From: Candidatus Omnitrophota bacterium
GTDB lineage: Bacteria; Omnitrophota; Gorgyraeia; 1-14-0-20-64-10
DNA: 64,000 bases
Assembly (NCBI GenBank): GCA_023248155.1
Contig: JAHFFE010000001.1
Coordinates: forward strand, 212,873-276,872
Direction: 5' to 3'
Shown: positions 16,216 to 58,865 of the stretch, piece by piece
Layout: the number at the start of each line of letters is the position of its first letter
Numbering within the stretch: position 1 is the first letter of the stretch
The notes under the pieces: model-generated
What the model saw: only the letters and a program-made list of their open reading frames with translations
What the model was told of the DNA's origin: nothing
The model's database searches: none
Made by a program: the position numbers and the translations under genes

Positions 16216-17595
16216 CTAAGCCACAACTCTGATGGCGACAAAACTAATCTCAGTGGTGGTGCTATCGAAATCATTGGTGACCACGCCATTGGGGTAAGGC
16301 CACAGGTCGCAATCGCTACCCCCGACCACGGACCAGGCTCCCACGAGATGCCAGCCCTCGTCGGCGTTACATTCAATACCATCGAGCGTATTACCGAAAC
16401 CGTTAAAAACTGAACCGGCAGGAGCAGCTACATTGTTCAGCGGAAGGAAGGGAGTAGTGCCCGCCGGAGCGGAAATAATACGAATCGGCCGAGTGCCGCC
16501 GCTGCTTCTAAACCCCTGCGCGAATTCGATCCGCGGCCCTCCTGCCAGTGCAACATAAGCGCCGCCGCTTTGAGACACCATAATCTGGTCCGTTGTGGAA
16601 TTGTAGTAAAGCCGGCCTGTATTGTTAACGCTGACCGAGGGATCAGCCGCCAAGCCGGGCAGTTGGATAGCCCCATCTTGAGTAAGCCGCATTCGTTCCG
16701 TGGAGGCGTTGGCGCCGGCTGCTGTTGTTGAAAAGATCAGCATGGCGGGCGTGGAAGCGGCCGTCCAATTCGCCGTTGCCTGCGCGCTGATTTGCGCTCC
16801 CGGGGCGAACCCCGCGCCGGTAAATCCAAAGAAGCCCACTTCCCCAAGAAGATCGTTGTTCAACACCGGTTGGCGGAACGCGCCTCCGGGAAAGTTTCCA
16901 CGCTCCCGCATCAGCGATAACCGGGCTCCCTGGTTGGCCGTGTCTGATTCCGCGTGAATCGACAAATTCGTCGTTTGCCCGAACGGACCCACGGCCACCA
17001 ATTGCGCCGCAGGTTCCAGAGGAAACGCCGTTCCAATGCTCAGATTGCCGCCGGTAATCGCTAAACTATCGTTGCCGGTCATTTGGATCCGCATATCGAA
17101 GTCGGTCGGCGCGTCGTTGGCAAAATCAATGTAGGGATTCCCGCCAAATGTCTCCGAACGAAGTTCAATCGCGGTGTTCTGATCGGAAGGGCCCCGAATC
17201 TGAACATAGTTCGCCGATCCAGCCGCCTGCCTGACAAACAAGTCTCCGGCTATATCCAGGCTTATCGTCCCTCCCGCACCCGGCAGAAATAGAGCCTGCG
17301 ATGCTTGGCCGGCGACACCCTGCACTTGCAGCAGCGTCAGGGGGTTTGTTGGCGCGTTATTCCCAAACCCGGGACCAATCCCCAAACTCGTCTGGATCAA
17401 TGCCTGGCCGTTGGCCAGCGTCGTGTTCAGATAAGCGTTGCCGACCGTCAAACTGGTAACATGTTCGTTGCCGCCAGACGTCGGGTAATAAGTGACGATC
17501 TCCGTAGTTTCCGCCCAGGCGTATCCAACAAAAGTTCCGATGAAGAAGAGAAAAAGAAGAACGCTTTTATTTTTCCAGAGAGGTTTAATTTTCAC
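16216..17595 (-). CDS. Secreted fibre-like protein, paralog family member (type-A N-terminal module)
   Basis: A GTG start at 17595 (SD AGGAG 8 nt upstream) gives VKIKPLWKNKSVLLFLFFIGTFVGYAWA|ETTEIVTYYPTSGGNEHVTSLTVGNAYLNTTLANGQALIQTSLGIGPGF..., the shared family N-terminus; also carries the DLFVRQAAGS...NPYIDFANDAPTDFDMRIQ module shared with 32375 and 39817. Confidence 0.85.
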   Translation of the reverse strand: MKIKPLWKNKSVLLFLFFIGTFVGYAWAETTEIVTYYPTSGGNEHVTSLTVGNAYLNTTLANGQALIQTSLGIGPGFGNNAPTNPLTLLQVQGVAGQASQALFLPGAGGTISLDIAGDLFVRQAAGSANYVQIRGPSDQNTAIELRSETFGGNPYIDFANDAPTDFDMRIQMTGNDSLAITGGNLSIGTAFPLEPAAQLVAVGPFGQTTNLSIHAESDTANQGARLSLMRERGNFPGGAFRQPVLNNDLLGEVGFFGFTGAGFAPGAQISAQATANWTAASTPAMLIFSTTAAGANASTERMRLTQDGAIQLPGLAADPSVSVNNTGRLYYNSTTDQIMVSQSGGAYVALAGGPRIEFAQGFRSSGGTRPIRIISAPAGTTPFLPLNNVAAPAGSVFNGFGNTLDGIECNADEGWHLVGAWSVVGGSDCDLWPYPNGVVTNDFDSTTTEISFVAIRVVA

Positions 17596-26199: not shown

Positions 26200-26736
26200 A
26201 TGAGGCAGACTTCTTCATTCAAGCGGCGCGGGCAGTCCGGTGTTTCGCTGCTGGAGTTGATTGTCGCCACGGCGATCGTCGGCATTGTCAGTTTAGCTGT
26301 CGCTACGATCTACACCACTGCCAACCGCTACATGCTTCAGGATTTCAATTCCTCTAATGCGCAGAGCGAAGCTTCGTTCGCGCTGGAGCATATCAAGAAA
26401 TTTGTGCAGTTGGCCACCGCGATTGACAATGCGACTCTGCCGGTTGGCGGAAATTCAAACGCGCTGCAGTTTACCTGGACGAATCGAGAACCTCCCAGCA
26501 CCGGCGCATTGGTTACGCGCACTTCCCGCTATGAAATCCAGGCCGGGAATTTGGTTTTTATACAAGATACTACGGTGGGTGCCGCGGAACAATTGGCGAG
26601 GGGAGTCTCGGCCATTGAGTTTACGCGTCCGTTGGCCGGAAGCATCGCGGTTGATTTGACCGTTAATGTCAACGCGGTTACCGGCACCCGGCAGCAGCGG
26701 CTTCAAACCACGGTGAATCCTCGAGGCGTGGCATAA
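26200..26736 (+). CDS. Prepilin-type N-terminal cleavage/methylation domain protein (type IV pilin / pseudopilin)
   Basis: Class III signal: KRRGQSG|VSLLELIVATAIVGIVSLAV with Glu at +5. Confidence 0.8.
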   Translation: MRQTSSFKRRGQSGVSLLELIVATAIVGIVSLAVATIYTTANRYMLQDFNSSNAQSEASFALEHIKKFVQLATAIDNATLPVGGNSNALQFTWTNREPPSTGALVTRTSRYEIQAGNLVFIQDTTVGAAEQLARGVSAIEFTRPLAGSIAVDLTVNVNAVTGTRQQRLQTTVNPRGVA

Positions 26737-26750
26737 AAGGAGAAAATAAT

Positions 26751-27281
26751 ATGCTTTCTACGCGCACATCGGAGCGCGGATCAGCGCTGGTGATTGCGAT
26801 GGCGGCCGCGGTGATTGTCTCGATCATCGTGGCGGTGGTGATGAATCTTTCCATCCGCCGGTTTGAACTGTCCGCGCAGCGCACCGACCACGAAGTGGCC
26901 AAGATGAGCAGTGAGGCGGGCTTGCAATATGTCTTCTCCCGGCTGGCCATCGATGACGCTGTTTTCGGAGCTGCGGTTCGGCTTAAAAGAACTTCGCTGG
27001 GGGCGGCAGCTGTTCCGTTGAATAACGCCGCCGCTGAATATGTGGTCACCTGTGACACGGCGCTGCCTGGGGGGTCCGATGAGGTGGATCAGCGCCTGCA
27101 TGTCGGCGCTAAGATCGATACGCAGGGCCCAGCCAGCCCGACGAACGGCCAATATGTCGGCGGCAAGCATGTGACGATTCGCGTACGGTTTTTGACGGCG
27201 AACGACTTTACGGCAAATCCGACTCTGGATGCGGCCCGGCCTTACCGGGTGAGGGTCGATACCAATTTCGCGGAGGGTTAA
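26751..27281 (+). CDS. PilX/GspK-like minor pseudopilin (N-terminal hydrophobic helix, no Glu+5)
   Basis: SERGSALVIAMAAAVIVSIIVAVVMNL N-terminal segment; position between two prepilin genes. Confidence 0.55.
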   Translation: MLSTRTSERGSALVIAMAAAVIVSIIVAVVMNLSIRRFELSAQRTDHEVAKMSSEAGLQYVFSRLAIDDAVFGAAVRLKRTSLGAAAVPLNNAAAEYVVTCDTALPGGSDEVDQRLHVGAKIDTQGPASPTNGQYVGGKHVTIRVRFLTANDFTANPTLDAARPYRVRVDTNFAEG

Positions 27282-27285
27282 ACCG

Positions 27286-27858
27286 ATGGGATCGCGCGAG
27301 AATCAAGAGGGCGTTTCGCTGCTGGAAGTGCTGATTTCCATGGTGATCATTACGATGGTGGCCGGCGGAATCATCACCGCGATGATCCAGAGCCGCCGCG
27401 TGACGATCCGTTCTTCGTCGGAACTCTCCACCGCGGGCCTGGTTTCGGAAGTTTCGGAAGCGCTGCGCTCGGCCGTCAACGGGCCGATTACCACCGGCCC
27501 ATTTACCGGATTTGATTTGACGAATCCTGGGATTTTTGCCGATGCCAATATGCAAAACCGTCCGGCCGGCGCTACCGCCGTTAACTCATTAATTCTGCCG
27601 GCTGATTTTAGAGATAAATTCCAAACCAGTGCCGGCACCGCTGCGACGATTGCCGGACATGGAGACGGGCGCTTGGTGGTGGTGGAGAACGCGCCAGTTG
27701 ACAACAACCCCGCCAACGGAACGATTGACGCGGCCGAGCTGGCTGCCGTCGATCTCGACGGAGACGGGCAGGCCGGCATCGATTTTGACAATGACGGCAT
27801 CACCGATTTGCGGCGCGTCCGCGTGAAAGTGAAATTTACCTCCCCGACATCCAGCTGA
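27286..27858 (+). CDS. Prepilin-type N-terminal cleavage/methylation domain protein (minor pilin)
   Basis: NQEG|VSLLEVLISMVIITMVAGGIITA with Glu at +5. Confidence 0.75.
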   Translation: MGSRENQEGVSLLEVLISMVIITMVAGGIITAMIQSRRVTIRSSSELSTAGLVSEVSEALRSAVNGPITTGPFTGFDLTNPGIFADANMQNRPAGATAVNSLILPADFRDKFQTSAGTAATIAGHGDGRLVVVENAPVDNNPANGTIDAAELAAVDLDGDGQAGIDFDNDGITDLRRVRVKVKFTSPTSS

Positions 27859-32299: not shown

Positions 32300-32332
32300 A
32301 AAATCCTTCCTGTTAGCGCTTCCTTTTTTGTG

Positions 32333-32338
32333 TATACT
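32333..32338 (+). promoter_or_regulatory. GTATACT -10-like element upstream of the first gene of the fibre cluster
   Basis: TGTATACT 32331-32338, 36 nt before ATG 32375, SD GGAGG in between. Confidence 0.35.
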
Positions 32339-32374
32339 TATTTTTAGGGGGTCACTTTCTCACGGAGGTGTCTC

Positions 32375-34069
32375 ATGAAGCACAGTGTCGTTATTCCTCT
32401 GCTTGTCCTTGGAATTTTCGCCAACTATGCCTGGGCGGAAACCATCGAACTGGTCACTTATTATCCGACATCATCGAATGCCGGCGATCAACATCTCACT
32501 AGTTTAACCGTCGGCAATGCTTATCTAAACACGACACTGGCCGCCGGGCAGGCCTTGATCCAGGCCAGTTTGGGGATTGGTCCCGGGTTTGCGAATAACG
32601 AGCCGGCGGCTCCGACGATGCTGCAAGTGCAGGGTGTCGATGCTCAGGATTCAACAGCTCTATTTTTACCCGGCGCTGGAGGAACGATGAGCGTGGGGAT
32701 TGGCACAACGCCGGTTCTTGGAAGCGCTCTGGATGTTACCGGCGGAGACTTGTTTGTCCGGCAGACGGCCGGATCTGGAAACCATGTTCGGATCCGGGCT
32801 CCCTCCGATGCGAATACGGCCATTGAACTGCGCTCGGAAACGGCCGGCGGAAATCCGTACATTGATTTTGCTAATGACGCGGCAACCGATTTTGATATGC
32901 GCATTCAGTTAACCGGCAACGATGAGTTGCGCATTGACGGCGGGGCTCTTCAGGTGCGTCGGGAAGGGGGAGTCGATCAAACCGGCCAGCTGGCCCGGTA
33001 CACAAATGACGCGCAGCCGACCTCGCTATCTCTGCTGAAGGGCAGGAACACAGCAGCGGTCCCTTTCCGTCCTTCCCTTAATGATGGGTTGGGAATGATT
33101 CGTTTTCAGGGGGTTAATGTGGTTGGGCAGAATTATGACGGGGCCACGATTCAGGCTATTGCGTCGGCGAACTGGACCAATGCATCCGCGCCGGCCGATA
33201 TGGTTTTTTCCACCACGCCGTCTGGCGCCAACGGATCCGCGGAACGGATGCGGATTACGGATGACGGCCGAGTTTTGATTGGAACAACGGTTGTTCCCCC
33301 GACCGCGCCGACTACGCTGCTTGTGGCCCGGCGCGATGCCGATGAAATGGTGATGATGCGTGTCGAAAATCAGAATAATTCCGCGAACGCCGCCGCCCGC
33401 GTGTTTGCGGTTTCCCAGCAGGCCGCCACGCCAATCTCAATTGGAATGGATGCCTTCTCCCAGAATTTTAACACGACCACTTCATTAGGTGCTGCTGTTC
33501 CTGGGAATACGCTAATTGCTACCTTTGCCACTTTTGGGGCGATGGCTGCCAACCTGGGCAACCTGTTTATCGCGTCACGCGGACCCAACCAACGGATTGC
33601 ATTCCATACAGGAAATCTTGCTGTTGATGCGACCACCGAACGAATGCGGATTACCAACACCGGTCTTGTCGGGATTAATATCACAAATCCTACCTTCCGT
33701 TTACAATTACCCAACCTCGCTGTTGATTCAACGGGGCGCGGGCGCGCGAACGCATGGACAACCTACTCCTCCATTCGATGGAAAGAAAACATTACCTCAA
33801 TTGACCACCCCCTGGATAAGATTCAGGAACTTCGCGGTGTTTATTTTAATTGGAAAAAAGAACAAGGAGGCGTCCGGGATATTGGATTAATTGCCGAAGA
33901 AGTTGGCAAAATAATTCCGGAGGTTGTTTCTTATGAAGAGAACGGTAAAGATGCCAGTGGTATTACCTATGACCGATTGGTGGCTCTTTTAGTAGAGGGA
34001 ATCAAAGAGCTCAAGGTTGAGAATGATGCACTGAAGAAAAGAATTGATGATTTGGAGAAAAAATCATGA
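32375..34069 (+). CDS. Secreted fibre-like protein, paralog family (type-A N-term) with C-terminal intramolecular-chaperone (peptidase S74, endosialidase-chaperone-like) domain
   Basis: Signal peptide + AETIELVTYYPTS; C-terminus SSIRWKENITSIDHPLDKIQELRGVYFNWKKEQ...IGLIAEEV...YDRLVALLVEGIKELK...coiled coil matches the IMC/S74 domain of phage tail spikes. Confidence 0.85.
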   Translation: MKHSVVIPLLVLGIFANYAWAETIELVTYYPTSSNAGDQHLTSLTVGNAYLNTTLAAGQALIQASLGIGPGFANNEPAAPTMLQVQGVDAQDSTALFLPGAGGTMSVGIGTTPVLGSALDVTGGDLFVRQTAGSGNHVRIRAPSDANTAIELRSETAGGNPYIDFANDAATDFDMRIQLTGNDELRIDGGALQVRREGGVDQTGQLARYTNDAQPTSLSLLKGRNTAAVPFRPSLNDGLGMIRFQGVNVVGQNYDGATIQAIASANWTNASAPADMVFSTTPSGANGSAERMRITDDGRVLIGTTVVPPTAPTTLLVARRDADEMVMMRVENQNNSANAAARVFAVSQQAATPISIGMDAFSQNFNTTTSLGAAVPGNTLIATFATFGAMAANLGNLFIASRGPNQRIAFHTGNLAVDATTERMRITNTGLVGINITNPTFRLQLPNLAVDSTGRGRANAWTTYSSIRWKENITSIDHPLDKIQELRGVYFNWKKEQGGVRDIGLIAEEVGKIIPEVVSYEENGKDASGITYDRLVALLVEGIKELKVENDALKKRIDDLEKKS

Positions 34070-35433
34070 AGCGCGCAATTTTGTTGTTCACCGTTTTAGG
34101 GCTTGTTTCTAGTATCGCCTGGGCGGAAACCACAGAAATTGTTACCTATTATCCGACTACCGGCGGTAATAACGAACATTTAAACGATTTAACGGTAGGG
34201 CCGGGCTTTTTGGGAGAAAACCCCGACCCTGGCGAAGTGCTGATTGAAACGCGGCTTGGAATCGGAACTAATAATCCGCAGGAACAGATTCAGATCACGG
34301 GCAATTTAAGGCTTCCTGCCACCACCGCCGCGGGAGGTGTTCCTTCCGGCGGTGTTATTTTTTCTAATACAAACAGGTTTATTCACAATTTTGGGAGCGG
34401 CAATTTTTTCGCGGGGACCAACGCAGGCAATTTCACGCTGACGGGTTCTTCGAATGTTGGGATAGGCACTAACGCGATGCAGAGCCTGACGAACGGAATT
34501 CAGAATGTCGCCGTGGGACCTCGCGCCATGGAGAGCACGACCAGCGGGCAGAGGAATTCCGCGTTTGGCATGGAGAGTCTGAATAATAATACGACGGGCG
34601 GTTTGAACACAGCGCTGGGGCATAATACGCTTTTTTTTAATCAGACCGGATTTGATAACACCGCGGTAGGCTATCAGGCTTTGCTGAACACGACGGGCAG
34701 CGATAACGTGGCGGTGGGCCAAAACGCCGGATCGAATTTGTTGGCGAACGCGAACACGACCGGGTCGGGCAATACGTTTATAGGGACCCGATCGGGTTCC
34801 GGGGTGGCCGCGCAATTAACCAACGCGACCGCGCTTGGATTTGAAGCATTGGTCTCGGCCAGCAACGCGCTGGTGCTGGGCGGAACAGGCGCCAACGCGG
34901 TCAATGTGGGGATTGGCACGGAAACGCCGGCTCAGCGGCTTCATGTCGTGGGAACCGTGCAAATCGTAGATGGGACCCAGGCGAACGGAAGAGTGCTAAC
35001 CTCTGACGCCAACGGCGTAGCCAGCTGGCAGGCAGCCACTTCAGTGCCTGTTATCGCAAATCCTACATTGGCCGCACCGGTCTGGGTTCGGGTCGGGAAT
35101 AATATCCTTTTCGGGAACCAGGATCATGAATTCATGACCCGGTTCACGTTTGCCACCGCGGGAGGTGTCCGCCGCGTGCGGCTTACGGTGACGGCTCGAA
35201 ATGCCAACGATCAGCCGCCTGTCGGTACCGTCTTTAATCTGAATTCGCCCACATTCAGGGACGGTTGGGGTGGAAATAACGCGGGACCAGGAGGAGGGTA
35301 TACTCTCAACTGGATTCAGTTTTACACCCAAAATCCAGGAAACGGAAATCAGTTAACCGTCGTCGCTTTTGGAGAGGATGGCAGCAGTGGCTTTGGATCG
35401 ATTAATGCAAACGTTGATGTTTCGTATCAGTAA
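34066..35433 (+). CDS. Secreted fibre-like protein, paralog family (type-B N-term)
   Basis: MKRAILLFTVLGLVSSIAWA|ETTEIVTYYPTTGGNNEHLNDLTVGPGFLGENP...; NTAVG/NTTG repeats; start overlaps the upstream stop (ATGA). Confidence 0.85.
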   Translation: MKRAILLFTVLGLVSSIAWAETTEIVTYYPTTGGNNEHLNDLTVGPGFLGENPDPGEVLIETRLGIGTNNPQEQIQITGNLRLPATTAAGGVPSGGVIFSNTNRFIHNFGSGNFFAGTNAGNFTLTGSSNVGIGTNAMQSLTNGIQNVAVGPRAMESTTSGQRNSAFGMESLNNNTTGGLNTALGHNTLFFNQTGFDNTAVGYQALLNTTGSDNVAVGQNAGSNLLANANTTGSGNTFIGTRSGSGVAAQLTNATALGFEALVSASNALVLGGTGANAVNVGIGTETPAQRLHVVGTVQIVDGTQANGRVLTSDANGVASWQAATSVPVIANPTLAAPVWVRVGNNILFGNQDHEFMTRFTFATAGGVRRVRLTVTARNANDQPPVGTVFNLNSPTFRDGWGGNNAGPGGGYTLNWIQFYTQNPGNGNQLTVVAFGEDGSSGFGSINANVDVSYQ

Positions 35434-35500
35434 ATAAACGGAATTATTCGATTTGACCAGCGAAAATATATTTTTAGGCATGAAAGGTGAGTAGATTAAA

Positions 35501-36886
35501 GTGAAAGAATTATGGTTGTTTCTGGGTATATTTGGATTACTAATCAGCTCCGTTTGGGCGGAAACCACAGAAATTGTTACCTATTATCCAACCTCTGGCA
35601 GCAACGAACATGCCACCAGTTTGACGGTTGGTAATGATTATCTGAATACCGTGCTGGCCGACGGTCAGGCGTTGATTCAAACCAGTTTGGGGATTGGGAC
35701 CGGGTTTGGAGGTGGTGCGGGTAATTTGCTGGAGGTGCGTGGCGTTTCTGGGGTTACCAGTAATGCTCTGTTTTTAGCAGGCACGGGTATCGGCTCGAAC
35801 ATCCGGGTTGGGATCGGGGTTGCGGTTCCGAATGAGCAGCTGGAGATCTCCGGCAATTTTCGGCTTCCTCCGACGACAGCGGCCACCGGAATTATTTTCT
35901 CGGGCGCCAACCGGTTCATCCACAATTTTGGGACCAACAACTTCTTCGCCGGTGTGAACGCGGGCAATTTCACCCTGACGGGAACTGGAAATGTGGGGAT
36001 TGGCCCGCAAACTCTCCTAAGCCTCACCAGCGGTGTTCGAAATATTGCTATCGGAACGGACGCTCTTTTATCTAATAGAAGTGGAAGTGGAAATGTCGCG
36101 ATTGGCACTGGAACCATCAGTTTTAGCACGCTCGGCAGTGACAATGTCGCTATTGGCCGCGCTGCGTTGGCAAATGTAAGTACCGTGGGCGCTCTGTCCG
36201 GACAGAACAATGTTGCTATGGGTTCCACCGCCCTTGTGTTCAATACCACCGGTTCTGAAAATGTGGCGCTTGGTTTTCAGTCCGGCGTGACGGTCACCCA
36301 GGCCAATGCCAATACGACCGGTTCCAATAATACGTTTGTTGGATTTAATGCCGGTCCTGGAACAGCAACTCAGCTGAACAATGCCACCGCCCTTGGCGCC
36401 AACGCGCTGGTTTCGGCCAGTAACGCGCTGGTGTTGGGCGGCACCGGCGCCAATGCTGTGAATGTGGGGATTGGCACGGAAACGCCGGCTCAGCGGCTTC
36501 ATGTCGTGGGAACCGTGCGGATCGTGGACGGGACCCAGGCGAACGGAAGAGTGCTAACCTCTGACGCCAACGGCGTAGCCAGCTGGCAGGCGTCCGGCGC
36601 TGCGGGATTTCCGGCTCCGGATTACGACAGTGGATGGGTTACTTCCCAAAGCCCGGGCAATACCAAGACATATACGCATAACCTTGGAACATTAGAATAC
36701 ATGGTCTATATAGAAGGAAGAACCGTTTCCGGAGATCATCCCCCAGGCACGATTCATCAAGTGAATAACCCGGGAGGGACTGACGCGTCCTGGTTGGACA
36801 GCAAGAAAACAAATTCAGTCGTTGTGATGCGTCACACGGGAGACACAGACTGGGATGAGACCAGGGTAAGATGCTGGAGATGGTAA
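35501..36886 (+). CDS. Secreted fibre-like protein, paralog family (type-A N-term)
   Basis: GTG start with SD; ...VWA|ETTEIVTYYPTSGSNEHATSLTVGNDYLNTVLADGQALIQTSLGIG; shares a ~170-bp near-identical block with 34066 (NALVLGGTGANAVNVGIGTETPAQRLHVVGTV...). Confidence 0.85.
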   Translation: MKELWLFLGIFGLLISSVWAETTEIVTYYPTSGSNEHATSLTVGNDYLNTVLADGQALIQTSLGIGTGFGGGAGNLLEVRGVSGVTSNALFLAGTGIGSNIRVGIGVAVPNEQLEISGNFRLPPTTAATGIIFSGANRFIHNFGTNNFFAGVNAGNFTLTGTGNVGIGPQTLLSLTSGVRNIAIGTDALLSNRSGSGNVAIGTGTISFSTLGSDNVAIGRAALANVSTVGALSGQNNVAMGSTALVFNTTGSENVALGFQSGVTVTQANANTTGSNNTFVGFNAGPGTATQLNNATALGANALVSASNALVLGGTGANAVNVGIGTETPAQRLHVVGTVRIVDGTQANGRVLTSDANGVASWQASGAAGFPAPDYDSGWVTSQSPGNTKTYTHNLGTLEYMVYIEGRTVSGDHPPGTIHQVNNPGGTDASWLDSKKTNSVVVMRHTGDTDWDETRVRCWRW

Positions 36887-36918
36887 CCTCGACCGTGATC
36901 GGGATGCCGAAGTAGCGA

Positions 36919-38274
36919 TTATTTCGTCTGGCCGGTGAATGTGAAATCGCGGATCAGCATGGCCGGCGCTACAACCGAACTAAATCCTTGCGCCGGGTCG
37001 GCCACGAGCCGCCGTTCTTTCGAGAGCGCGATCACCTGAGAAAATGCTTTTAAGACCGGCTGCGTGAACCGCAGTGTTTTCGCGGCGCCTACCACCTTGC
37101 CTTTCTCGACGATGAAAGTTCCGTCGCGCGTCAGACCCGTCATCAGCGCTTCCCGCGTATCGAGAAGTCCGCTGACATAATGGAACCGGGTGATCCAGAG
37201 CCCCCGGTCCATTTTTTTCAGCATCTCGGCGCGCGGTGTTTTGCCCGGGTCCACCAGCAAATGCGTGGCGATCGGTCCTTCCGCTTCGTCATAGGGCAGC
37301 GCGTGGCCGGTCGAGGGTTGATGGTACAGTTTGCCGTAATGGCTGTCGTAGACCAGCCGCTGCGCCCGGCCTTTCTCGATCAAGCCGACATTTTTTCGGG
37401 GGACCCCTTCGAAATCAAACGGCATCGAGAGACAAGCCGGATCGGCCGCGTCGTCGCGGATCGTGATGTTGTCGCCCATGATTTTGTCGCCGATCCGTCC
37501 TGCCATGAAACTTGATTTCTCGTAAAATTGTTTGGCGCCAAAACCGATAAAACTGAGCCACTCCACCAATTCCGCCACCGCCTCCGGTTCGATCAGCACC
37601 GTATATTTCCCGAGCGGGATCTTTTTTTGATTCCGGTTGCGCCGGCAATGATCGCTGGCCCGCTTGAGCAGTTCATCGGCATCCAGCGTTTCGGAGTCGC
37701 GGTACGATTGTGCCGCGAACCCGGATGATTTTCCGGAAGTCGCAACCAGGCGCAATCCTCCTGCGGTAAAAGGCTGATAGACAGCGAGTCCTCCTGATCC
37801 GACGACGGCCAGTTCGCTTTCTCCTGCGGTCGAGGATCCTGCCAGTTCCAGCCCGGTTTTTTCGGCGGTCAGCCAGAGATTTTTGAGAAGAGTAAGCCGT
37901 TCTTTCGGCTGCTGTTGGGCTGTTTGCGCGAAATGCGTTTGAAGCACAGGCAGAGGTTTTTTCAACGGATTGGTTTGGAATGACGCTGCCGGTGATTTGC
38001 CGGATAGTTTCGCGATTGCCAGCGCCGAATCAACGGCGCGGCGCAGAGCCTCTTTCGTCAGCGAAGAACAGGTAGCCACGCCGACGCGGCCATGCCAGCT
38101 GGTTTTTACCCAGACGGTAATATCCTGCTCAGCAAAGTTCTGATGAATCTTTCCGCTGGAGAACCGGAATATCGTTTGCTGTGAATGCTGGCAGGCGATC
38201 AGCGTCTGGTCGGCCTTCGAGTAACGCGCCGCCTGCTTCAATTCTGAAATCAGTCTTATTTTTCCGATCAGCAT
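36919..38274 (-). CDS. pmbA: TldD/PmbA-family metalloprotease (PmbA/TldE-like)
   Basis: 451 aa TldD/PmbA family, paired with tldD immediately upstream. Confidence 0.8.
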   Translation of the reverse strand: MLIGKIRLISELKQAARYSKADQTLIACQHSQQTIFRFSSGKIHQNFAEQDITVWVKTSWHGRVGVATCSSLTKEALRRAVDSALAIAKLSGKSPAASFQTNPLKKPLPVLQTHFAQTAQQQPKERLTLLKNLWLTAEKTGLELAGSSTAGESELAVVGSGGLAVYQPFTAGGLRLVATSGKSSGFAAQSYRDSETLDADELLKRASDHCRRNRNQKKIPLGKYTVLIEPEAVAELVEWLSFIGFGAKQFYEKSSFMAGRIGDKIMGDNITIRDDAADPACLSMPFDFEGVPRKNVGLIEKGRAQRLVYDSHYGKLYHQPSTGHALPYDEAEGPIATHLLVDPGKTPRAEMLKKMDRGLWITRFHYVSGLLDTREALMTGLTRDGTFIVEKGKVVGAAKTLRFTQPVLKAFSQVIALSKERRLVADPAQGFSSVVAPAMLIRDFTFTGQTK

Positions 38275-39722
38275 CAGCCGACCTGCACTTTCTCAAAGCG
38301 GGCCGGGGAAGCGCCATGGCCCACATGCATCACCTGGATCGGTTCTCCCTTGGCGCAGTTGGGAACGCCGTAGAGCCGCCATTCTTCTTTGCCGGTAATG
38401 CCGCTGCACGAGTTCCAGAATTCCGGCGTGATGCCGGTATAAACCGGATTTTTCAACGCCTGTCCCAATTTTCCGTTGCGGATCTCCCAGCCGATTTCGG
38501 TTCCGAACTGAAAGTTCAGCCGTTTATCGTCGATCGACCAGCTTTTGTTGGTCGCCAGTAAAATCCCTTTTTTCGTGTCGCCAATCAGGTCATCCAGCGT
38601 GCCGGTTCCGGGATCGAGGCTTACATTGGTCATCCGCACGATCGGCACGGCGTTCCATCCATCGGCGCGCATCGCTCCGGTTGAATGGCTGCCGATTTGC
38701 GCGGCGGTTTCCCTCGAGCTGAGATAGTTGACGAACCGGCCGTTCTGAATAATCGGCACGCGCTGGGCAGGCACACCCTCATCGTCGTAGCCGAATGTGC
38801 CGCAGCCTTTCGGCAGTGTGGCGTCGGCGGTAATATTAACGAGCCGGTTTCCGTAGCGGTAATGTCCCAGCGTGTCGGGCGTCAGAAAACTGCCGCCTGC
38901 GAATGAAAGTTCCATTCCCAGTGCGCGGTCCAGTTCGGTTGGATGCCCGCATGACTCATGCACCTGCAGAATCAGCTGATCCGGCATTAAAATCACGGTG
39001 GTTTTTCCGGAAGGGCATTCTTTGGCGCGCAGCAATGTGACCGCTTCCTGGCGCACCCGTTTTGCTTCGCCGACAAAATCGAGTGCTTTTACATATTCAT
39101 AACCGGCCTGCGCCAGCGAACAGGAATTTGCCGTCGGGAATGACCGTTTTTGCATCTCATTGCCGAGCACGGCGGTGGCTTCAATCATGCCGCCCGATTC
39201 GGTGATCAGCTGTTCGATCCAGGCCCCTTCGGTCGAGCAAAACAGTTTCTCGGTTTTATGGAATTCCAGTTTCGCGATCGCGCTGGCGATCTGCGGATTA
39301 TCCTTAAGCACCTGGCAGGTCCAGAGCAGGTAATCCAGTTTGCGCTGCAGTGGCACACGGAACGGGTCGATCTCCAAAGGAGTTTCGTAACGGCCGCGCG
39401 CCGGTTTCATCGGTCTTAAATGGGCCATTGGCGCGGTGGTCAGTGCTACGGCGCGCGCCATTTCGATGGCCCGGTCGGCGGTCTGCTTGAGTCCGCGCCG
39501 GTTAAAATGACAGGACGACGCGTGCCCCCAGGCCCCGTGGTCAAGTACGCGGATGAAAACACCTTCGCTGGCGCTCTGGCTGATATGCTGCGGCTGACCG
39601 TTTTGCACCACCAGCTCCTCTTTCAGCGCGTGGACAAAACGGAGATCTCCGTAACGGATGCCGCGCCGTTTGAGATAGGAAATAGTCTCGGAAAACAGGT
39701 TTTTGGGTTTGGAAGGAACCAT
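38274..39722 (-). CDS. tldD: TldD-family metalloprotease
   Basis: HESCGHPTELD zinc-binding motif; 482 aa. Confidence 0.85.
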   Translation of the reverse strand: MVPSKPKNLFSETISYLKRRGIRYGDLRFVHALKEELVVQNGQPQHISQSASEGVFIRVLDHGAWGHASSCHFNRRGLKQTADRAIEMARAVALTTAPMAHLRPMKPARGRYETPLEIDPFRVPLQRKLDYLLWTCQVLKDNPQIASAIAKLEFHKTEKLFCSTEGAWIEQLITESGGMIEATAVLGNEMQKRSFPTANSCSLAQAGYEYVKALDFVGEAKRVRQEAVTLLRAKECPSGKTTVILMPDQLILQVHESCGHPTELDRALGMELSFAGGSFLTPDTLGHYRYGNRLVNITADATLPKGCGTFGYDDEGVPAQRVPIIQNGRFVNYLSSRETAAQIGSHSTGAMRADGWNAVPIVRMTNVSLDPGTGTLDDLIGDTKKGILLATNKSWSIDDKRLNFQFGTEIGWEIRNGKLGQALKNPVYTGITPEFWNSCSGITGKEEWRLYGVPNCAKGEPIQVMHVGHGASPARFEKVQVG

Positions 39723-39816: not shown

Positions 39817-41364
39817 ATGAAGGTAAACGCTAGGTTTAGTGCCGCTGTTCCCGCCATCATCCTTCTCGTCTCAGTTATTTTTACCGGCATTGCCTGGGCC
39901 GAAACTGTTGAGTTAGTGACTTATTATCCAACATCGGCAAATAGCGGCGACCAGCATCTAACCAGTTTAACGGTGGGCAACGATTATTTGGCTACCACAC
40001 TGGCCAATGGCCAGGCATTGATCCAGACCAGCTTGGGGATTGGAACCGGGTTTGCCAACAACGAACCGGCGGCTCCGACGGTTTTGGAAGTACGCGGAGT
40101 GGCCGGTGATGCATCGCAGGCTCTGTTTCTGCCGGGTGCCGGCGGTACGATGAGCGTGGTGATCGGCCGGGACGGGGCGCCGGGGGCGGGAATCCCCGGC
40201 TCCGGTTTGTCGGTGGTCTCCACCAATGACGGCGTAGACATACGCGGGATAAGTGTTTTGCATTCCAGTAACGGTATCCAGGGAGGCATCCTAAATCTCC
40301 TTAAAAGCCGGGCGGCCGGTGCGGTGGTGCAGGCCGGGGATTATGCGGGCGGCGTGGGTTTCTGGTTTTTCAACAACGGCGAGGGGGGCATTTCCGAATC
40401 CGGATACACGCAGTCCGCGGCTATCTGGAGCGCCGTCAACAACGCGACTCCCGGGTCCGAAGCGGGGCATCTCGAGTTCTACACGACGAACGCCGGCGTG
40501 TCGTCGGAGAAGATACGGATCGCCGCGAACGGCAACGTGGGGATTGGAACGGCGGCACCCGGACAAACATTAACCGTTAATGGCACTCTGGGTATCTTGG
40601 AAGGAGGCGCCAATCCAACCGACCACACGATTTTTCAGGGAGGCACCCAGACAGGCGATATTACATACTCTCTCCCGGCGGCCCAGGGAGCTGCCGACAC
40701 CGTTCTTGCAAATAATGGGGCCGGTGTTCTCTCGTGGAGTGCTTCGGCGGGAGGAGGTGTTCCAAACACCGTCGTTGTTTTCAATGCTTCGGGAAACTGG
40801 ACGGCTCCTGCTGGAGTGACAAGAATTAATGTCCAGGTTTGGGGCGGCGGCGGCGGTGGCGGTGGAGCCACTAGTTGTTCGGGTTACGGCAGCGGCGGGG
40901 GCGGCGGCGGTTACGCCGAATCCATTCTTGCGGTTACACCGGGGACAACCTATACCGTTACGGTGGGTGCCGGAGGAACCGGAGGCGCTAGTATCGCGGG
41001 TACCGCCGGAGGCACATCGTTTTTTAATACCGCCGCGATCGTTTCGGCGACTGGCGGTGCTGGAGGACTAAGAGACTGCGAAGCCACGGCCGTCAACTCT
41101 ATTGGGGGAAATGGTCTAGGCACCATCACCATCACGGGCGCTTCCGGAGACATGGGCGGGAACACGAGCAGCTCTGTTCCAAACGGAGGCGATTCTCCTC
41201 TGGGCGGTAGTGGAGGGGATGGAGGTGCTAATAGCGGAACCCCGGCGCAGGGAAATGGTCGCGCAGGCATTATTCCTGGCGGTGGTGGCGGCGGTGCGGG
41301 CGGCACGGGCACAAGTGGTATAGGCGGCAATGGAGCACACGGAAGAGTAGTGATAAGGTTCTGA
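39817..41364 (+). CDS. Secreted fibre-like protein, paralog family (type-A N-term) with Gly-rich C-terminal region
   Basis: MKVNARFSAAVPAIILLVSVIFTGIAWA|ETVELVTYYPTSANSGDQHLTSLTVGNDYL...; C-term VWGGGGGGGGATSCSGYGSGGGGGGY...TVGAGGTGGAS. Confidence 0.85.
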   Translation: MKVNARFSAAVPAIILLVSVIFTGIAWAETVELVTYYPTSANSGDQHLTSLTVGNDYLATTLANGQALIQTSLGIGTGFANNEPAAPTVLEVRGVAGDASQALFLPGAGGTMSVVIGRDGAPGAGIPGSGLSVVSTNDGVDIRGISVLHSSNGIQGGILNLLKSRAAGAVVQAGDYAGGVGFWFFNNGEGGISESGYTQSAAIWSAVNNATPGSEAGHLEFYTTNAGVSSEKIRIAANGNVGIGTAAPGQTLTVNGTLGILEGGANPTDHTIFQGGTQTGDITYSLPAAQGAADTVLANNGAGVLSWSASAGGGVPNTVVVFNASGNWTAPAGVTRINVQVWGGGGGGGGATSCSGYGSGGGGGGYAESILAVTPGTTYTVTVGAGGTGGASIAGTAGGTSFFNTAAIVSATGGAGGLRDCEATAVNSIGGNGLGTITITGASGDMGGNTSSSVPNGGDSPLGGSGGDGGANSGTPAQGNGRAGIIPGGGGGGAGGTGTSGIGGNGAHGRVVIRF

Positions 41365-41384: not shown

Positions 41385-42773
41385 GTGACGCAGGCGGTTA
41401 ACAGGGTATTTCTCCAATTGCCTGGAGAGCAAATCAGTTCTCTGGCGCGTCGGCGCCGGTCGCTGGCGTTAAAACACCAGATGGTAGTTTATAATTCCCG
41501 CAAGCAGCCCCACCAGATCGATCTTCAGATGCGGCCCTGGGTGATGACGCGCGTGCAAGAATCATTTTTTTATAAAACCTGCCGGCTTCTGAATTCCGCG
41601 CTCGATAGAATCGTTCCTCTCTATTTGCACAATCCGCAGGTTCGCCAGATCGTTCCGTTGGAGCCGTATGAAGACGAATGGCTGCGTGCCGCCAACGCCC
41701 GCAAACTGCAAACGCCGCGAACGGTTTTCGGCCGGATCGACGCGACCGCTACCTTCGCGCATCCGCGCTGGAAGGACGATTTCTGGTTTTTGGAGCCGAA
41801 TGAAATCGGCATCGGCGGTGTTTATTACATCTACGGCACGATGGCGATGGCCAATGAATGGGTCGTGCCGCTGCTGAAAGAAAAAATCCCGGCGTTTCAG
41901 CCGCGAATGGCCAACGATCCGCAGCGGCTGCTGTTTCTGCTGATGCGCCGGCACGCGCGCGCCATTGGCCGGCCATTAAAGCGCGTGGCATTGGTCGAAG
42001 ATTGTTCAGAGCCGGAAGGGACCGCCGAATTTTCTTCGGTAGTCCAATCGTTCCGGCGATGGGGACTGGACGCGTTTGTGGCCGACCCTCGTCAGGTGAA
42101 AAGTCGTCGCGGCGAAATTACCGTGCGCGGGAAACCGGTTGATCTGATTTACCGCGATACGGAACTGACCGAGATGGCCGAAATGGGCGGCCGCGATTTT
42201 TCAAAAAAATTCTCGGGCATGCGCGAAGCGTTCATCCAAAACCGCGGGATCTCTTCGCTGGCCGGCGAGTTCGATCACAAGTCATGCTGGGAATTGTTTA
42301 CCAATCCGCAATTTGGCCATTATTTTACGCCTGCCCAGCGCCGGCTTTTCCAGAAACATATTCTTTGGACACGGTTACTGTGGGAACGGACCACGACCGA
42401 TTGGAACGGAAAATCGGTCGATCTCGTTGCCTGCACTCAAAAGAACCGCGCACGCTTGGTGCTGAAGCCAAACCGCGCGTACGGCGGAGAAGGGGTTTTA
42501 TTCGGTTGGGCTGTTTCGCAGAGCCGATGGGATCGCGCGCTGGCAACGGCGCTGCGGGAACCGTCCCAATGGATTGTTCAGCGCGCCGCGCGCGTGCATG
42601 AAGAATTATTTCCGGAGATCCGTCCCAATGGCCGCGTAAAACTGGAACCATTTTTTGCGGTAACCGGTTTTGCCGCTACCCCCGACGGCATGGCGGTTCT
42701 GGGCCGGTTTTCAGAAGAATCGGTAGTGAATGTTTCCCGCCGCGGCGGATTAATTCCGGTTTTTCGATTGTGA
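41385..42773 (+). CDS. Hypothetical protein, possibly circularly-permuted ATP-grasp / glutathionylspermidine-synthase-like
   Basis: 462 aa, GTG start; weak resemblance (IGIGGVYYIYG, RAYGGEGVLFGW ATP-grasp-like strands); assignment is tentative. Confidence 0.35.
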   Translation: MTQAVNRVFLQLPGEQISSLARRRRSLALKHQMVVYNSRKQPHQIDLQMRPWVMTRVQESFFYKTCRLLNSALDRIVPLYLHNPQVRQIVPLEPYEDEWLRAANARKLQTPRTVFGRIDATATFAHPRWKDDFWFLEPNEIGIGGVYYIYGTMAMANEWVVPLLKEKIPAFQPRMANDPQRLLFLLMRRHARAIGRPLKRVALVEDCSEPEGTAEFSSVVQSFRRWGLDAFVADPRQVKSRRGEITVRGKPVDLIYRDTELTEMAEMGGRDFSKKFSGMREAFIQNRGISSLAGEFDHKSCWELFTNPQFGHYFTPAQRRLFQKHILWTRLLWERTTTDWNGKSVDLVACTQKNRARLVLKPNRAYGGEGVLFGWAVSQSRWDRALATALREPSQWIVQRAARVHEELFPEIRPNGRVKLEPFFAVTGFAATPDGMAVLGRFSEESVVNVSRRGGLIPVFRL

Positions 42774-42785: not shown

Positions 42786-44300
42786 ATGAGCGATAAAAAA
42801 TCTTTCACAAAAATAGTCCTTGGGTTTTTAGCAATAGGGCTTGTTGCCGGCATCGCCTGGGCCGAAACGACCGAAATTGTGACCTATTATCCTACCAGCG
42901 GCGGTGGCGGCGCCGATCCGCAGGTAAACTCGATCAGGGTCGGAAACGGCTATGCAGGAACTGCTGCTCCGGGGAATGGAATAGCGCGCATCGAAACATC
43001 TCTCGGGATCGGTCTGGCGGGACTACCCACTCAACAGATTGAAATTACCGGTAATTTTCAGTTGCCGGCCACGACGGCTCCGGGAGGTATCCTTGCCGGG
43101 GGCGCTATTTTGTCCAATGGCAACAGGTTCATTCACAATTTCGGATCGAACAATTTTTTTGCGGGTGTGAACGCCGGTAACTTTACCATGACCGGTGGTA
43201 CGAACACGGCGGTTGGGGCTACTGCTTTGCGTGCCAACACTACCGGTGGCGGTAATACGGCTGTCGGTCAAAGTGCTTTGGCGAGCAATACCACCGGTCC
43301 TTCAAATACCGCTATCGGAATTGCTGCGCTCACTGCCAATATTAGCGGCGGCAACAATGTTGCTATTGGACGGACGGCGCTTTTCCTTAATAATAATGGT
43401 TCCTTCAACACCGCGGTCGGGAACCAGTCTCTTGCAAACAACACGGTTTCCGACAATACAGCCATTGGTTTTGGAGCTATGCAACTCAATACGACCGGCA
43501 CTGACAACACCGCCGTGGGGTTCTCTGCTCTGCTGAGTAATACCACGGGCGTCACCAATGCCGCCGTCGGCATGAACACCCTTCTCAACAACACCATTGG
43601 CGGCGGCAACGCCGCGCTGGGGACCAGTGCTCTTCTCAGCAACACCACCGGCATAAATAACACGGCGGTCGGCAGTGCTGCAGGTGGTATTAACACCACC
43701 GGTTCAAACAATGTTTTTATTGGGCAAATAGCACAACCAACTGTCGGGAACCTTACTAATGCCATTGCCATCGGTTCCAACGCGCAAGTTGGCGCCAGCA
43801 ACAGTATGGTTCTGGGTGGAACCGGCGCCAATGCGGTCAATGTCGGTATTGCTGTGACTACGCCGAGAACGCCGGCTCCGAACGCGGCCGCCGGCAACCT
43901 GGATGTAAATGATGTTTGGGTAAGAAGTTTGAACGCCGGGGCGGGAGCCTGGCTGAGTCAGCAGGCCGGAGGTGGAGCTCAAATGGTGACGGGCAGTTAT
44001 GTCGGTAATGGAATCAATGCCCGTCGAACCATAGCGGTTGCCGGCGTTACGGCGGCCACGCCGATTCGTTTCTTGACGGTAATTGGAAATTGGCGCAATA
44101 CGACTTCTGCGATGACCAATATTAAAACAGCGACCATGGCAGGAACGCTGAATTATCATTGGGCGCCTGCGCTGGCAACCTATGAGCTTACCGTCGGCGG
44201 TCCCGCGATTCAATTTGAGGCGACCGGGTTTAGTTTTCTGCATGATGCGGGCACCATCAATCAGAATGGGCAGACGTACCACTACATCGCCTATTTGTAA
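42786..44300 (+). CDS. Secreted fibre-like protein, paralog family (type-B N-term)
   Basis: ...GIAWA|ETTEIVTYYPTSGGGGADPQVNSIRVGNGY...; long run of NTAVG/NTTG 14-15-aa repeats. Confidence 0.85.
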   Translation: MSDKKSFTKIVLGFLAIGLVAGIAWAETTEIVTYYPTSGGGGADPQVNSIRVGNGYAGTAAPGNGIARIETSLGIGLAGLPTQQIEITGNFQLPATTAPGGILAGGAILSNGNRFIHNFGSNNFFAGVNAGNFTMTGGTNTAVGATALRANTTGGGNTAVGQSALASNTTGPSNTAIGIAALTANISGGNNVAIGRTALFLNNNGSFNTAVGNQSLANNTVSDNTAIGFGAMQLNTTGTDNTAVGFSALLSNTTGVTNAAVGMNTLLNNTIGGGNAALGTSALLSNTTGINNTAVGSAAGGINTTGSNNVFIGQIAQPTVGNLTNAIAIGSNAQVGASNSMVLGGTGANAVNVGIAVTTPRTPAPNAAAGNLDVNDVWVRSLNAGAGAWLSQQAGGGAQMVTGSYVGNGINARRTIAVAGVTAATPIRFLTVIGNWRNTTSAMTNIKTATMAGTLNYHWAPALATYELTVGGPAIQFEATGFSFLHDAGTINQNGQTYHYIAYL

Positions 44301-50778: not shown

Positions 50779-52377
50779 ATGAAAAATCCAATTGTAAAAA
50801 ATAAAACTAACCGCATCTTATTTACGCTGTTGTTTTTGGGATTAATCGCCACGAGTGTATCTGCCGATACAGTTGAGCTGGTGACTTATTATCCGACCGA
50901 GTCCAACGGCCAGTTTGACCGCAACCATGCCCGGCGTTCGACAGTGGGGTCAGCCTATTCACCCGATACGATTACCGATGCCGCTGTCCCCGATGGGACG
51001 CTGCTGGTTTCGGAGAGGCTTGGAATTGGGATAACCGCGCCGCAATTCCCACTCGATATTTACCGCAGTGCTGATGAGGCCTATCTGCGCGTGATGGGCG
51101 TTGGCAACGGTTTGGCCCCGGAAAACTTTGCTGGGATCGAGTTGGACAGCGATCTTCCGGTCAACGGTGTTCCCGATTACAAATGGCAGCTGGTGCATAA
51201 ACGGGGCGGCGCCGGCGGGGAGAACGATTTCCACATTACTTTTTACGATCCAACTATCCCGGCCTGGCGGGTATGGCTGGCTATTCGGAAAAACGGCAAT
51301 GTCGGCATTGGCAACGTACCGTTCCCGGATGAAAAATTGCAGGTGAACGGCAATATCCGGATGCCTAACACCTTTGTCGACGGACTGGGTGTGGCCACGG
51401 CCGGCGTGATCTACAGCGACACGACGCGGTTTATTCATAACTTCGGTTCGAACAATACATTCATGGGTGTGGAATCCGGCAACTTTACGACGGCCGGAAC
51501 CGGGTTTAATTCCGGCTATGGCCAGCGTACACTGATGAACGTGACCACCGGGTTTTTTAACGCGGCGGTGGGTGCTGGATCACTCACTTCGAATACCGTT
51601 GGCTCCGACAATACAGCGGTTGGCACCAGTTCGCTAACCTCCAACAACACCGGTAATAATAATGTGGCGGTCGGTTATCAGGCGCTGTTGAGCAATATCA
51701 GCGGCAGCAACAATGTGGCGGTTGGAACTCAGGCCGGCGGCAACGCCGGGGGCAACCAGAACATTTTTATCGGTGTTCAGGCCGGTTTGAACGAAGCCGG
51801 CAACGACAAGCTGTACATTGAAAACTCCAGCTCAGCCAACCCATTAATCTACGGTGATTTTTCCACCGATACGGTCCGGATCAACAATCATTTAGGAATA
51901 GGCACCAGTGTCGTGGGTGGCACGAATGCGCTGGCGATTGCCAATGGAATCGAGCCGGCTACCAACCCTGCCGGCCAGATTCAGCTGTTTGCCAAAAATG
52001 TTTCCGGCACATCAAAACTGTGGGTGATTGATGGAGCCGGTTTTTCGTCAACGATTTCACCGCATAACTTCTCACTGATTCCATCGGGCGCCAGCGAGCC
52101 GCTGGCGTGGGCATTTTATTCGGAACGCGCCGGCCATGCCGTTAATGTCGATATGCTGCGCGCCATCCGCGTCCTTGAAAATTTATCCGGCGAGCAGCTG
52201 GTTTATCTAAAAAATCTTCGCACCCATCAAGACGAAAGTTCCCGTTTAACCAGCCCGGTTGTTCCCTCGCTTGAAAAAGAAATTCAACAGCTGAAAGCCG
52301 ACAACGAAAAACTGCAGAAGCAGGTTGATGACCTTAAAAGATCAGTCGACGCGTTGGCGCGAAACTCCCGCCGGTAA
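50779..52377 (+). CDS. Secreted fibre-like protein, divergent paralog with C-terminal coiled coil
   Basis: ...SVSA|DTVELVTYYPTESNGQ...; NRFIHNFGSNN and NTAVG/NTTG repeats; C-term EKEIQQLKADNEKLQKQVDDLKRSVDAL. Confidence 0.8.
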   Translation: MKNPIVKNKTNRILFTLLFLGLIATSVSADTVELVTYYPTESNGQFDRNHARRSTVGSAYSPDTITDAAVPDGTLLVSERLGIGITAPQFPLDIYRSADEAYLRVMGVGNGLAPENFAGIELDSDLPVNGVPDYKWQLVHKRGGAGGENDFHITFYDPTIPAWRVWLAIRKNGNVGIGNVPFPDEKLQVNGNIRMPNTFVDGLGVATAGVIYSDTTRFIHNFGSNNTFMGVESGNFTTAGTGFNSGYGQRTLMNVTTGFFNAAVGAGSLTSNTVGSDNTAVGTSSLTSNNTGNNNVAVGYQALLSNISGSNNVAVGTQAGGNAGGNQNIFIGVQAGLNEAGNDKLYIENSSSANPLIYGDFSTDTVRINNHLGIGTSVVGGTNALAIANGIEPATNPAGQIQLFAKNVSGTSKLWVIDGAGFSSTISPHNFSLIPSGASEPLAWAFYSERAGHAVNVDMLRAIRVLENLSGEQLVYLKNLRTHQDESSRLTSPVVPSLEKEIQQLKADNEKLQKQVDDLKRSVDALARNSRR

Positions 52378-53085: not shown

Positions 53086-53106
53086 CAAAAATAACCAATT
53101 TTATGG

Positions 53107-53112
53107 CATACT
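53107..53112 (+). promoter_or_regulatory. CATACT -10-like element 7 nt before ATG 53120 (leaderless-type); shares ATACTT(A)CCTTATAT with the 1524 element
   Basis: GCATACTTCCTTAT-ATG compared with GTATACTTACCTTATATCG-ATG at 1523. Confidence 0.35.
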
Positions 53113-53119
53113 TCCTTAT

Positions 53120-57325: not shown

Positions 57326-57335
57326 GGAGAGAGCC

Positions 57336-58844: not shown

Positions 58845-58865
58845 GTTCCTAATGGAGGTTTTGAA

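Follow-up and report, generated by a model that had tools for sequence, protein, structure and literature searches.

How do genes scattered over tens of kilobases of a bacterial chromosome come to share DNA that is up to 97% identical and then, from one nucleotide to the next, ceases to be alike? The question is raised by a 64,000-nucleotide stretch from a Candidatus Omnitrophota bacterium (contig JAHFFE010000001.1, positions 212,873 to 276,872; hereafter the window, in whose coordinates all positions are given), which carries ten genes for fibre-like proteins. An earlier account made without database searches (the sequence-only reading) had noticed ~500-bp blocks common to three of these genes and had attributed them to gene conversion or domain swapping. 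We find that four of the fibre genes have exchanged or homogenised segments by homologous recombination. Taking all parts of the interpretation together, we consider it quite probable that the window encodes ten four-part secreted fibres, that four of them have recombined within this genome, and that the set amounts to a repertoire like that of the mosaic adhesive trimers (MATs) of Bdellovibrio bacteriovorus.

The ten proteins, 455-635 aa in length, consist of four parts: a Sec-type signal peptide (ending in AxA) with a conserved, lineage-specific N-terminal module of the form AET-E-VTYYPT...LGIG; a stalk built of NTAVG-x-x-AL-x-x-NTTG repeats, which has homologues among phage tail-fibre and virion proteins; a conserved junction that terminates in a VGIGTxxPxxxL motif; and C-terminal tips that are unrelated to one another. 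We refer to five of the genes by letter (A, B, C, D and E, starting at 34066, 57336, 61614, 35501 and 42786, respectively) and to four further paralogs by their start coordinates.

16216 to 17577, minus strand: fibre paralog adjoining lptG/lptF.
32375 to 34069, plus strand: f32375, C-terminal chaperone domain of the Peptidase_S74 family; 4-nt overlap between its stop and the start of A.
34066 to 35433, plus strand: A, a mosaic paralog of 455 aa; N-terminal module and first half of the stalk B-like, second half C-like, post-junction part D-like.
35501 to 36886, plus strand: D, 461 aa, in tandem with A; a different stalk, with junction and post-junction module as in A.
39817 to 41364, plus strand: f39817, with a glycine-rich C-terminal domain (Gly_rich_2, Pfam).
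42786 to 44300, plus strand: E, 504 aa; same repeat type in a longer stalk, only N-terminal module and junction shared.
50779 to 52377, plus strand: f50779, with a coiled-coil C-terminus, between bioD-bioA and ubiE.
57336 to 58844, plus strand: B, 502 aa; shared region 57411-58217; tip type also present in P0005 and P0044.
58866 to 60773, plus strand: f58866, Peptidase_S74 with SDARLK, and internal 153-bp stalk repeats.
61614 to 63116, plus strand: C, 500 aa; shared region 61683-62479; start overlaps the ubiA stop, stop overlaps the ubiX start.

Aligning the window against itself with BLASTN recovered the shared blocks, all in direct orientation. A matches B at 88.4% over 807 ungapped bp (34123-34929 versus 57411-58217, E = 0) and C at 84.8% over 816 bp (34117-34928 versus 61683-62479, E = 0), and B and C are 81.4% identical to each other (57408-58234 versus 61686-62497). 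The features of A that matter for what follows are these:

34117 to 34929, plus strand: region of A similar to B and C (88% and 85%, self-BLASTN).
34519 to 34928, plus strand: core homogenised block, with 12 mismatches in 410 positions between A and C (97%); corresponds to 62070-62479 in C and 57807-58216 in B.
34903 to 35033, plus strand: block that A and D have in common, 97% identical (4 mismatches over 131 positions); corresponds to 36461-36591 in D and encodes the post-junction module ...AQRLHVVGTV.IVDGTQANGRVLTSDANGVASWQA.
34850 to 34929, plus strand: junction segment, encoding ...LVSASNALVLGGTGANAVNVGIGTETP; DNA-level likeness in B (58138-58217), C (62401-62480) and D (36408-36487), weaker in E (43794-43851).
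34906 to 34941, plus strand: VGIGTETPAQRL codons, fitting the MAT capping-loop consensus V-G-(I)-G/N-pi-x-x-P-x-x-x-L.

The blocks described by the sequence-only reading are therefore real, but not its figure of ~95% identity among all three genes: over 34402-34935 and its counterparts, identity is 90.3% for A-B, 92.8% for A-C and 87.3% for B-C, and the A-C core reaches 97%. Similarity also starts some 280 bp further upstream, at ~34117, and is strongly uneven along the blocks. Upstream of the core, A and C are ~83% identical in the preceding 80 bp and ~70% identical, with indels, further upstream; A and B are 83-86% identical in the first half and ~92-94% identical over 34521-34929. All differences between A and C in the core (12 in 34519-34928, 13 in 34519-34929) lie at third codon positions. 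The second block, between A and D, does run past the junction as had been claimed, with its register shifted by 2 nt from what was proposed (34861-35035 versus 36421-36595): the wider match joins 34821-35033 to 36379-36591 at 89% over 213 bp, with an offset of 1558. The abrupt loss of identity that had been reported is sharp to the nucleotide, falling between 34929 and 34930 for A, B and C and between 35033 and 35034 for A and D.

After aligning the codons of A, B, C and D we determined synonymous divergence (pS) along with third-position and informative-site counts, and found that relationships switch along A. Informative sites favour AB|CD by 19:1 at 34241-34440, AC|BD by 13:1 at 34521-34902 and AD|BC by 10:0 at 34903-35040. 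Between A and C, pS falls from 0.5-1.0 upstream to 0-0.19 in 34510-34905; between A and D it falls from 0.6-1.1 upstream to 0.14-0.23 in 34906-35055, and in both cases the protein is conserved in both parts. Among codons for the same residue, third positions differ between A and C in 22 of 41 at 34241-34440 but in 10 of 127 at 34521-34902 (a drop from ~55% to ~8%), and between A and D in 39 of 65 outside the block versus 3 of 43 inside it. In a two-breakpoint max-chi-square test, none of 300 permutations reached the observed value, whichever pair was taken. Gene A is thus pieced together: B-like at first, then C-like (97%), then D-like (97%), and finally equipped with a private tip.

Might the blocks simply be the most constrained part of old duplicates, kept alike by purifying selection or codon bias, with no recombination at all? 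The protein sequence of stalk and junction is conserved across genomes, as this model would have it, and GC content at third codon positions (GC3) is higher in the homogenised blocks (0.63-0.74 in 34521-35033, 57809-58217, 62072-62480 and 36379-36591) than in the N-terminal and tip regions on either side (0.52-0.65), a difference that is also compatible with GC-biased gene conversion. However, when we compared the DNA of four relatives from other metagenomes with the window genes, the homogenisation of synonymous sites (8% in the block versus ~55% in equally conserved flanking protein) turned out to be specific to this genome. In the distal stalk, A, B and C are mutually 94-98% identical but only 77-81% identical to the same stalk type in P0005, P0004, P0007 and L018, which argues for concerted evolution within this genome. 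Likewise, in the post-junction module we count 2 synonymous codon differences between A and D but 14 between either of them and an Omnitrophota metagenome-assembled genome (MAG) in which 40 of the 43 residues of the module are identical. Together with the switches in topology along A, these comparisons make constraint on its own a very unlikely explanation, and they bear out the mosaic origin that the sequence-only reading had proposed.

A more trivial scenario is that the assembler collapsed or mis-joined paralogs or strains into chimeric genes. The window belongs to a metagenome-assembled contig, and repeated blocks of 400-800 bp are a classic source of mis-joins. Yet exact runs common to two paralogs extend to 86 bp at most, below the k of 141 used in the MEGAHIT assembly discussed here, so that collapse or mis-joining is unlikely. 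MEGAHIT k141 contigs of the ENA assembly ERZ27280021, which may share reads with the assembly of the window and is not fully independent of it, reproduce 33455-38433 and 56705-64000 without mismatch, with B and C together on one contig. Contig ends lie outside the repeats and every gene has an intact reading frame. That the mosaic is an artefact strikes us as extremely improbable.

If recombination shaped these genes, where did it begin and end? About 80 bp of junction DNA are common to all five stalk-type paralogs A to E, and this segment is the likely homology for crossovers. The A/B/C breakpoint lies inside the capping-loop motif, whose consensus comes from Bdellovibrio MAT fibres and S74 proteins, directly after the Pro codon at 34929; the same motif is found in B (58194-58229), C (62457-62492) and D (36464-36499). 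At the boundary between stalk and tip it takes the forms VGIGTETPAQRL, QATL and SATL, and LGIGTNNPQEQI occurs at the boundary between N-terminal module and stalk in A, B, C and D. Judged by this motif, the 3' breakpoints fall on a boundary between structural modules. The claim that breakpoints follow domain boundaries consequently holds at the 3' side and fails at the 5' side, where the blocks end inside the stalk repeats (~34440-34520). Such an arrangement would be expected if tracts ended arbitrarily within homologous DNA and were stopped on the 3' side by loss of homology.

Across genomes, modules are reassorted at the conserved junction. In L009 and L010, a C-type tip (81-86% nucleotide identity) is carried by a stalk that is unrelated (56%), and P0005 has a B-type tip behind an E-type N-terminus, followed by an ortholog of f58866 just as in the window. 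Taking the 50 family proteins whose junction could be recognised, we see the stalk cluster of A/B/C combined with five tip clusters, and tip clusters in turn combined with several stalk clusters. Neighbouring paralogs in relatives also have partial blocks of high identity (86% over 461 bp in L005, 92% over 210 bp in L009). Scanning metagenome DNA with the junction pattern returned two contigs, both of the P0004 type, and nothing new. The tip of A is nearly an orphan, with 2 homologous clusters among 1.84 billion representative proteins.

Two further observations concern the make-up of individual fibres. In f58866 there is an internal tandem duplication (59367-59899) with a 153-bp period, of which 59604-59714 and 59757-59867 are 91% identical; given these internal repeats, stalk length could be changed by unequal recombination within a gene. 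P0150, a protein of 211 aa from another metagenome, lacks a stalk, its ETLTITTYYPSP-type N-terminus being followed almost at once by an A-type tip, which suggests that N-terminal module and tip may be workable as a minimal unit.

The phage-like appearance of the fibres raises the possibility that they are prophage remnants or cargo of phage-derived particles, such as a tailocin or an extracellular contractile injection system, and that their mosaicism predates integration. Stalk repeats, S74 chaperone and tip folds are all of phage type: the stalks match PHROG families of tail spike and virion structural proteins (E 1e-15 to 1e-73), tblastn finds 30-43% identity to phage tail fibres (only across residues ~110-310, the stalk), and Pfam places Peptidase_S74 on f32375 and f58866 (E 5.6e-14 and 3.8e-15) and on none of the other eight. 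Neither Pfam nor NCBIfam has a family for the N-terminal module, for the stalk or for the tips of A to E. However, the window is bacterial chromosome, not phage. Pfam scans of its open reading frames (ORFs) identified housekeeping genes for enolase, phosphotransferase system proteins, pgi, metK, ahcY and lptFG; the window also encodes a glycogen debranching enzyme, gltA-mdh-sucCD, pmbA/tldD and bioB/F/D-A, and ubiE/ubiD/ubiA/ubiX followed by mqn genes form the futalosine pathway to menaquinone. The same scans found no capsid, tail, baseplate, integrase or terminase gene anywhere in the 64 kb.

Every copy, moreover, has a Sec signal peptide and an N-terminal module that is absent from the phage records searched and whose named relatives all come from Candidatus Omnitrophota/Omnitrophica. 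A scan of IMG/VR with gene A returned no close relative, and in GTDB genome scans gene A gave 0 matches and an alignment of the N-terminal module 6 loci. Fibre genes also occupy conserved chromosomal positions among housekeeping genes in several Omnitrophota MAGs: the order (gltA)-mdh-sucC-sucD-[1 to at least 4 fibre genes]-pmbA-tldD is common to two such MAGs, to MAGs labelled 'uncultured Planctomycetia' and to the window, at 61-88% protein identity. With homogenisation specific to this genome in addition, we give a phage origin of the mosaic very little chance.

The sucD-pmbA interval (32300-36918 in the window) is itself a conserved fibre-gene site across Omnitrophota-type MAGs, with differing numbers of copies: L006 has 1, L004 has 2, the window has 3, and L003 and L005 have at least 3-4.

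The sequence-only reading had also likened the blocks to antigenic-variation cassettes. In programmed antigenic or phase variation of the pilE/pilS, vlsE or msp2 type, one expressed gene is rewritten often from silent donors; several paralogs with conserved flanks and variable parts, whose similarity stops sharply at a conserved junction, are what one would see in such a system. Such a system would also bring truncated or promoterless silent donors beside a single expression site. Instead, all ten are full-length, with start codon, signal peptide and tip, and self-BLAST of the window brought up no truncated, partial or promoterless fibre copies. Fibre genes also abut or overlap their housekeeping neighbours. 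Gaps of -20 to +21 nt are found for f32375-A (-4), f39817-orf462, orf462-E, f50779-ubiE, ubiD-B (+10), B-f58866 (+21), f58866-ubiA (-20), ubiA-C (-4) and C-ubiX (-4), where orf462 is an ORF of 462 aa; the remaining gaps between fibre genes and neighbours reach 32-109 nt. Because of this tight packing the fibre genes are probably co-transcribed with adjoining genes, which argues against silent cassettes. A scan for promoters and terminators yielded fewer sites than in shuffled sequence and is uninformative.

Furthermore, Pfam scans of the window ORFs detected no recombinase, invertase or reverse transcriptase, the repeats are direct, and the blocks differ by 3-12% between paralogs. These three features point to shuffling on an evolutionary scale rather than programmed switching. 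We therefore set the cassette analogy aside and regard programmed variation as extremely unlikely. Two other programmed systems were considered and rejected: a diversity-generating retroelement, given that no reverse transcriptase domain was found in those scans and that mismatches are nearly all at third positions with a core substitution spectrum that is not adenine-specific; and a shufflon, given the direct repeats and the lack of an invertase among the Pfam matches.

What process, then, might have produced the mosaic? Homologous recombination within the genome, our preferred explanation, would be of the RecA type and would start in homologous stalk or junction DNA. Tracts would end at chance positions within the stalk on the 5' side and, on the 3' side, where homology ceases at the capping-loop junction, while the ~80-bp common junction could act as the crossover point that moves tips onto other stalks. 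Such exchange would be general homologous recombination between dispersed direct repeats and non-reciprocal (gene conversion); only non-reciprocal events would survive, because a reciprocal crossover between direct repeats would delete 1.5-27 kb, housekeeping genes included.

Is there a known system that looks like this? We consider the MAT repertoire of Bdellovibrio bacteriovorus the closest known analogue. This superfamily has 21 paralogs, 13 with and 8 without S74 (Caulton et al. 2024, PMC10769870), which combine a conserved domain directly after the signal peptide with capping loops and varied tips, TNF-like ones among them (PMC10769870). Over the length of the fibre two members, Bd1334 and Bd2133, share 75% identity, beyond which they diverge; 'tip swapping' was proposed (PMC10769870). 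The window family resembles the MATs on several counts: many paralogs in one bacterial chromosome with a phage-like fibre body, a signal peptide followed by an N-terminal domain common to all copies, S74 and non-S74 subgroups in one genome, the capping-loop motif V-G-(I)-G/N-pi-x-x-P-x-x-x-L, paralogs whose likeness along the fibre gives way to divergence, and diverse C-terminal tips. A TNF-like tip may be among these as well, since the tip of C is predicted to form a TNF/C1q-like jelly roll.

There are differences, too. The window family belongs to another phylum, its proteins measure 455-635 aa rather than ~1,000 aa, and its N-terminal module is shorter than the ~130-aa MAT domain, to which we liken it by position and architecture only. 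Unlike MAT genes, the window genes are interleaved with genes for the tricarboxylic acid (TCA) cycle, biotin and menaquinone. They also provide nucleotide-level evidence of intragenomic conversion, for which text searches of PMC10769870 returned nothing. Finally, any predatory role of the window family is conjectural.

Two more distant parallels are instructive. In Ackermannviridae, a short conserved motif at a module boundary is the proposed site of recombination between the paralogous tail spike proteins TSP1-4 (PMC8432352). They share with the window family conserved N-terminal attachment parts and variable C-terminal receptor-binding modules; however, they are carried in the virion and set the phage's host range, whereas the window genes are cellular, their products Sec-exported, and their loci dispersed over tens of kb and unlinked to virion genes. 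The comparison with host-range modules of tail fibres drawn by the sequence-only reading is apt in this sense, although the genes at hand are chromosomal and bacterial. In the badA island of Bartonella, which encodes a repetitive trimeric adhesin, recombination among adjacent copies rearranges homologous arrays of domains (PMC8859334). Here, too, a modular repetitive fibre adhesin is reshuffled by recombination, but BadA belongs to the trimeric autotransporters, is anchored in the membrane by its C-terminus and has pseudogenes as partners, while the window proteins have no YadA-type anchor and all partners are intact. We considered and rejected a trimeric autotransporter reading of the window family itself: at a threshold of E<=0.01, Pfam searches brought up neither YadA_anchor nor Hep_Hag in the ten proteins, and the name 'trimeric autotransporter adhesin' on some homologues is only a label from the Joint Genome Institute. 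A family called 'PTL_trimer' (PF26696) was seen only in precomputed tables, and local Pfam scans gave no match to it.

By analogy with the Bdellovibrio fibres, the proteins would be trimeric surface fibres. The common N-terminal module would dock the fibre on the cell, and the variable tips would bind different ligands on other cells or surfaces. Since all copies would be co-expressed with neighbouring operon genes, the cell would display a repertoire of fibres, not one variant at a time.

Several considerations weigh against the interpretation of the window as a recombining MAT-like repertoire, or at least limit how far it can be pushed. As regards recombination, all within-genome comparisons come from what is effectively one assembly of one genome. 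Either conversion of the stalk or replacement of the tip could yield the same mosaic in each event. The 3-12% by which the blocks differ implies that the exchanges are not very recent, the 5' ends of the blocks lie off domain boundaries, and composition, given block GC3 of 0.63-0.74, may contribute to the low synonymous divergence. As regards structure, the AlphaFold2 monomer model of A has a mean predicted local distance difference test (pLDDT) score of 65, too poor a quality for assigning a fold, and no significant PDB match, even though its stalk is beta-rich with pLDDT 77-88; the model of the C tip was built on an alignment of 12 sequences; and searching the PDB, which contains the crystallised MAT tip fragments, with a 93-member profile of the family gave no match at E<=0.01. 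As regards function, we infer surface location, co-transcription and ligand binding.

The surroundings of the fibre genes deserve a few words. Placement among TCA, biotin and futalosine-menaquinone genes is unusual for genes of variable surface proteins, and 4-nt overlaps are frequent (ubiA/C, C/ubiX, f32375/A). Between two fibre genes, and separated from them by 20 and 12 nt, lies orf462 (41385-42773), whose sole match, to circularly permuted ATP-grasp, is below threshold (E 1.6e-4); a fibre-modifying or fibre-associated enzyme is one possibility. Inside the menaquinone cluster, an ORF of 935 aa without a Pfam family (53057-55864) is found between ubiE, which it overlaps by 29 nt, and ubiD. 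Directly upstream of gltA are three small pilin-like genes (26200-27858), two of which have the prokaryotic N-terminal methylation (pilin/pseudopilin) motif; the products of these two are candidate type IV pilus proteins or type II secretion pseudopilins. At 1542-7091, an ORF of 1849 aa encodes WD40 beta-propeller repeats and, near its C-terminus, an FHA domain, its first ~1100 residues being unannotated. Five tRNAs are the sole Rfam families above threshold in the window:

1340 to 1416: tRNA-Met, standing alone (Rfam).
7913 to 8290: cluster of four tRNAs, Arg-TCG, Lys-CTT, Leu-TAG and Gly-GCC (Rfam).

Recombination of this kind is already well known, and what we describe is adhesin diversification of a known type in a new lineage. 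The fibre family and its Omnitrophota setting, on the other hand, appear to be undescribed: the literature searched contained no link between Omnitrophota and tail-fibre-like or MAT proteins. For Omnitrophota, which are uncultured, a parasitic or predatory lifestyle has been proposed, with pili, giant ORFs and a small size of the cells as the main arguments (PMC10066038). Against this background we put forward, tentatively and as a scenario more likely to be wrong than right, that these nanobacteria, suspected of being host-dependent or predatory, have a MAT-like repertoire for recognising hosts or prey; that all of its fibres dock through the one lineage-specific N-terminal module; that the genes are deliberately interleaved, and coupled in translation, with essential operons (TCA, biotin and futalosine-menaquinone), which act as spacers that forbid deletion and permit gene conversion, keeping a stable, constitutive array whose tips and stalks continually recombine; and that the sucD-pmbA site is a conserved hot spot of turnover.

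As an evolutionary system, the locus offers a clean case from nature in which concerted evolution goes together with the exchange of modules at a defined structural motif (the capping loop), and as such is useful for the engineering of chimeric fibres. For the biology of Omnitrophota, a multi-copy MAT-like family with exchangeable tips would, if true, be a concrete candidate for partner-cell recognition, with tips that could potentially be screened on glycan arrays or used as baits for finding hosts.

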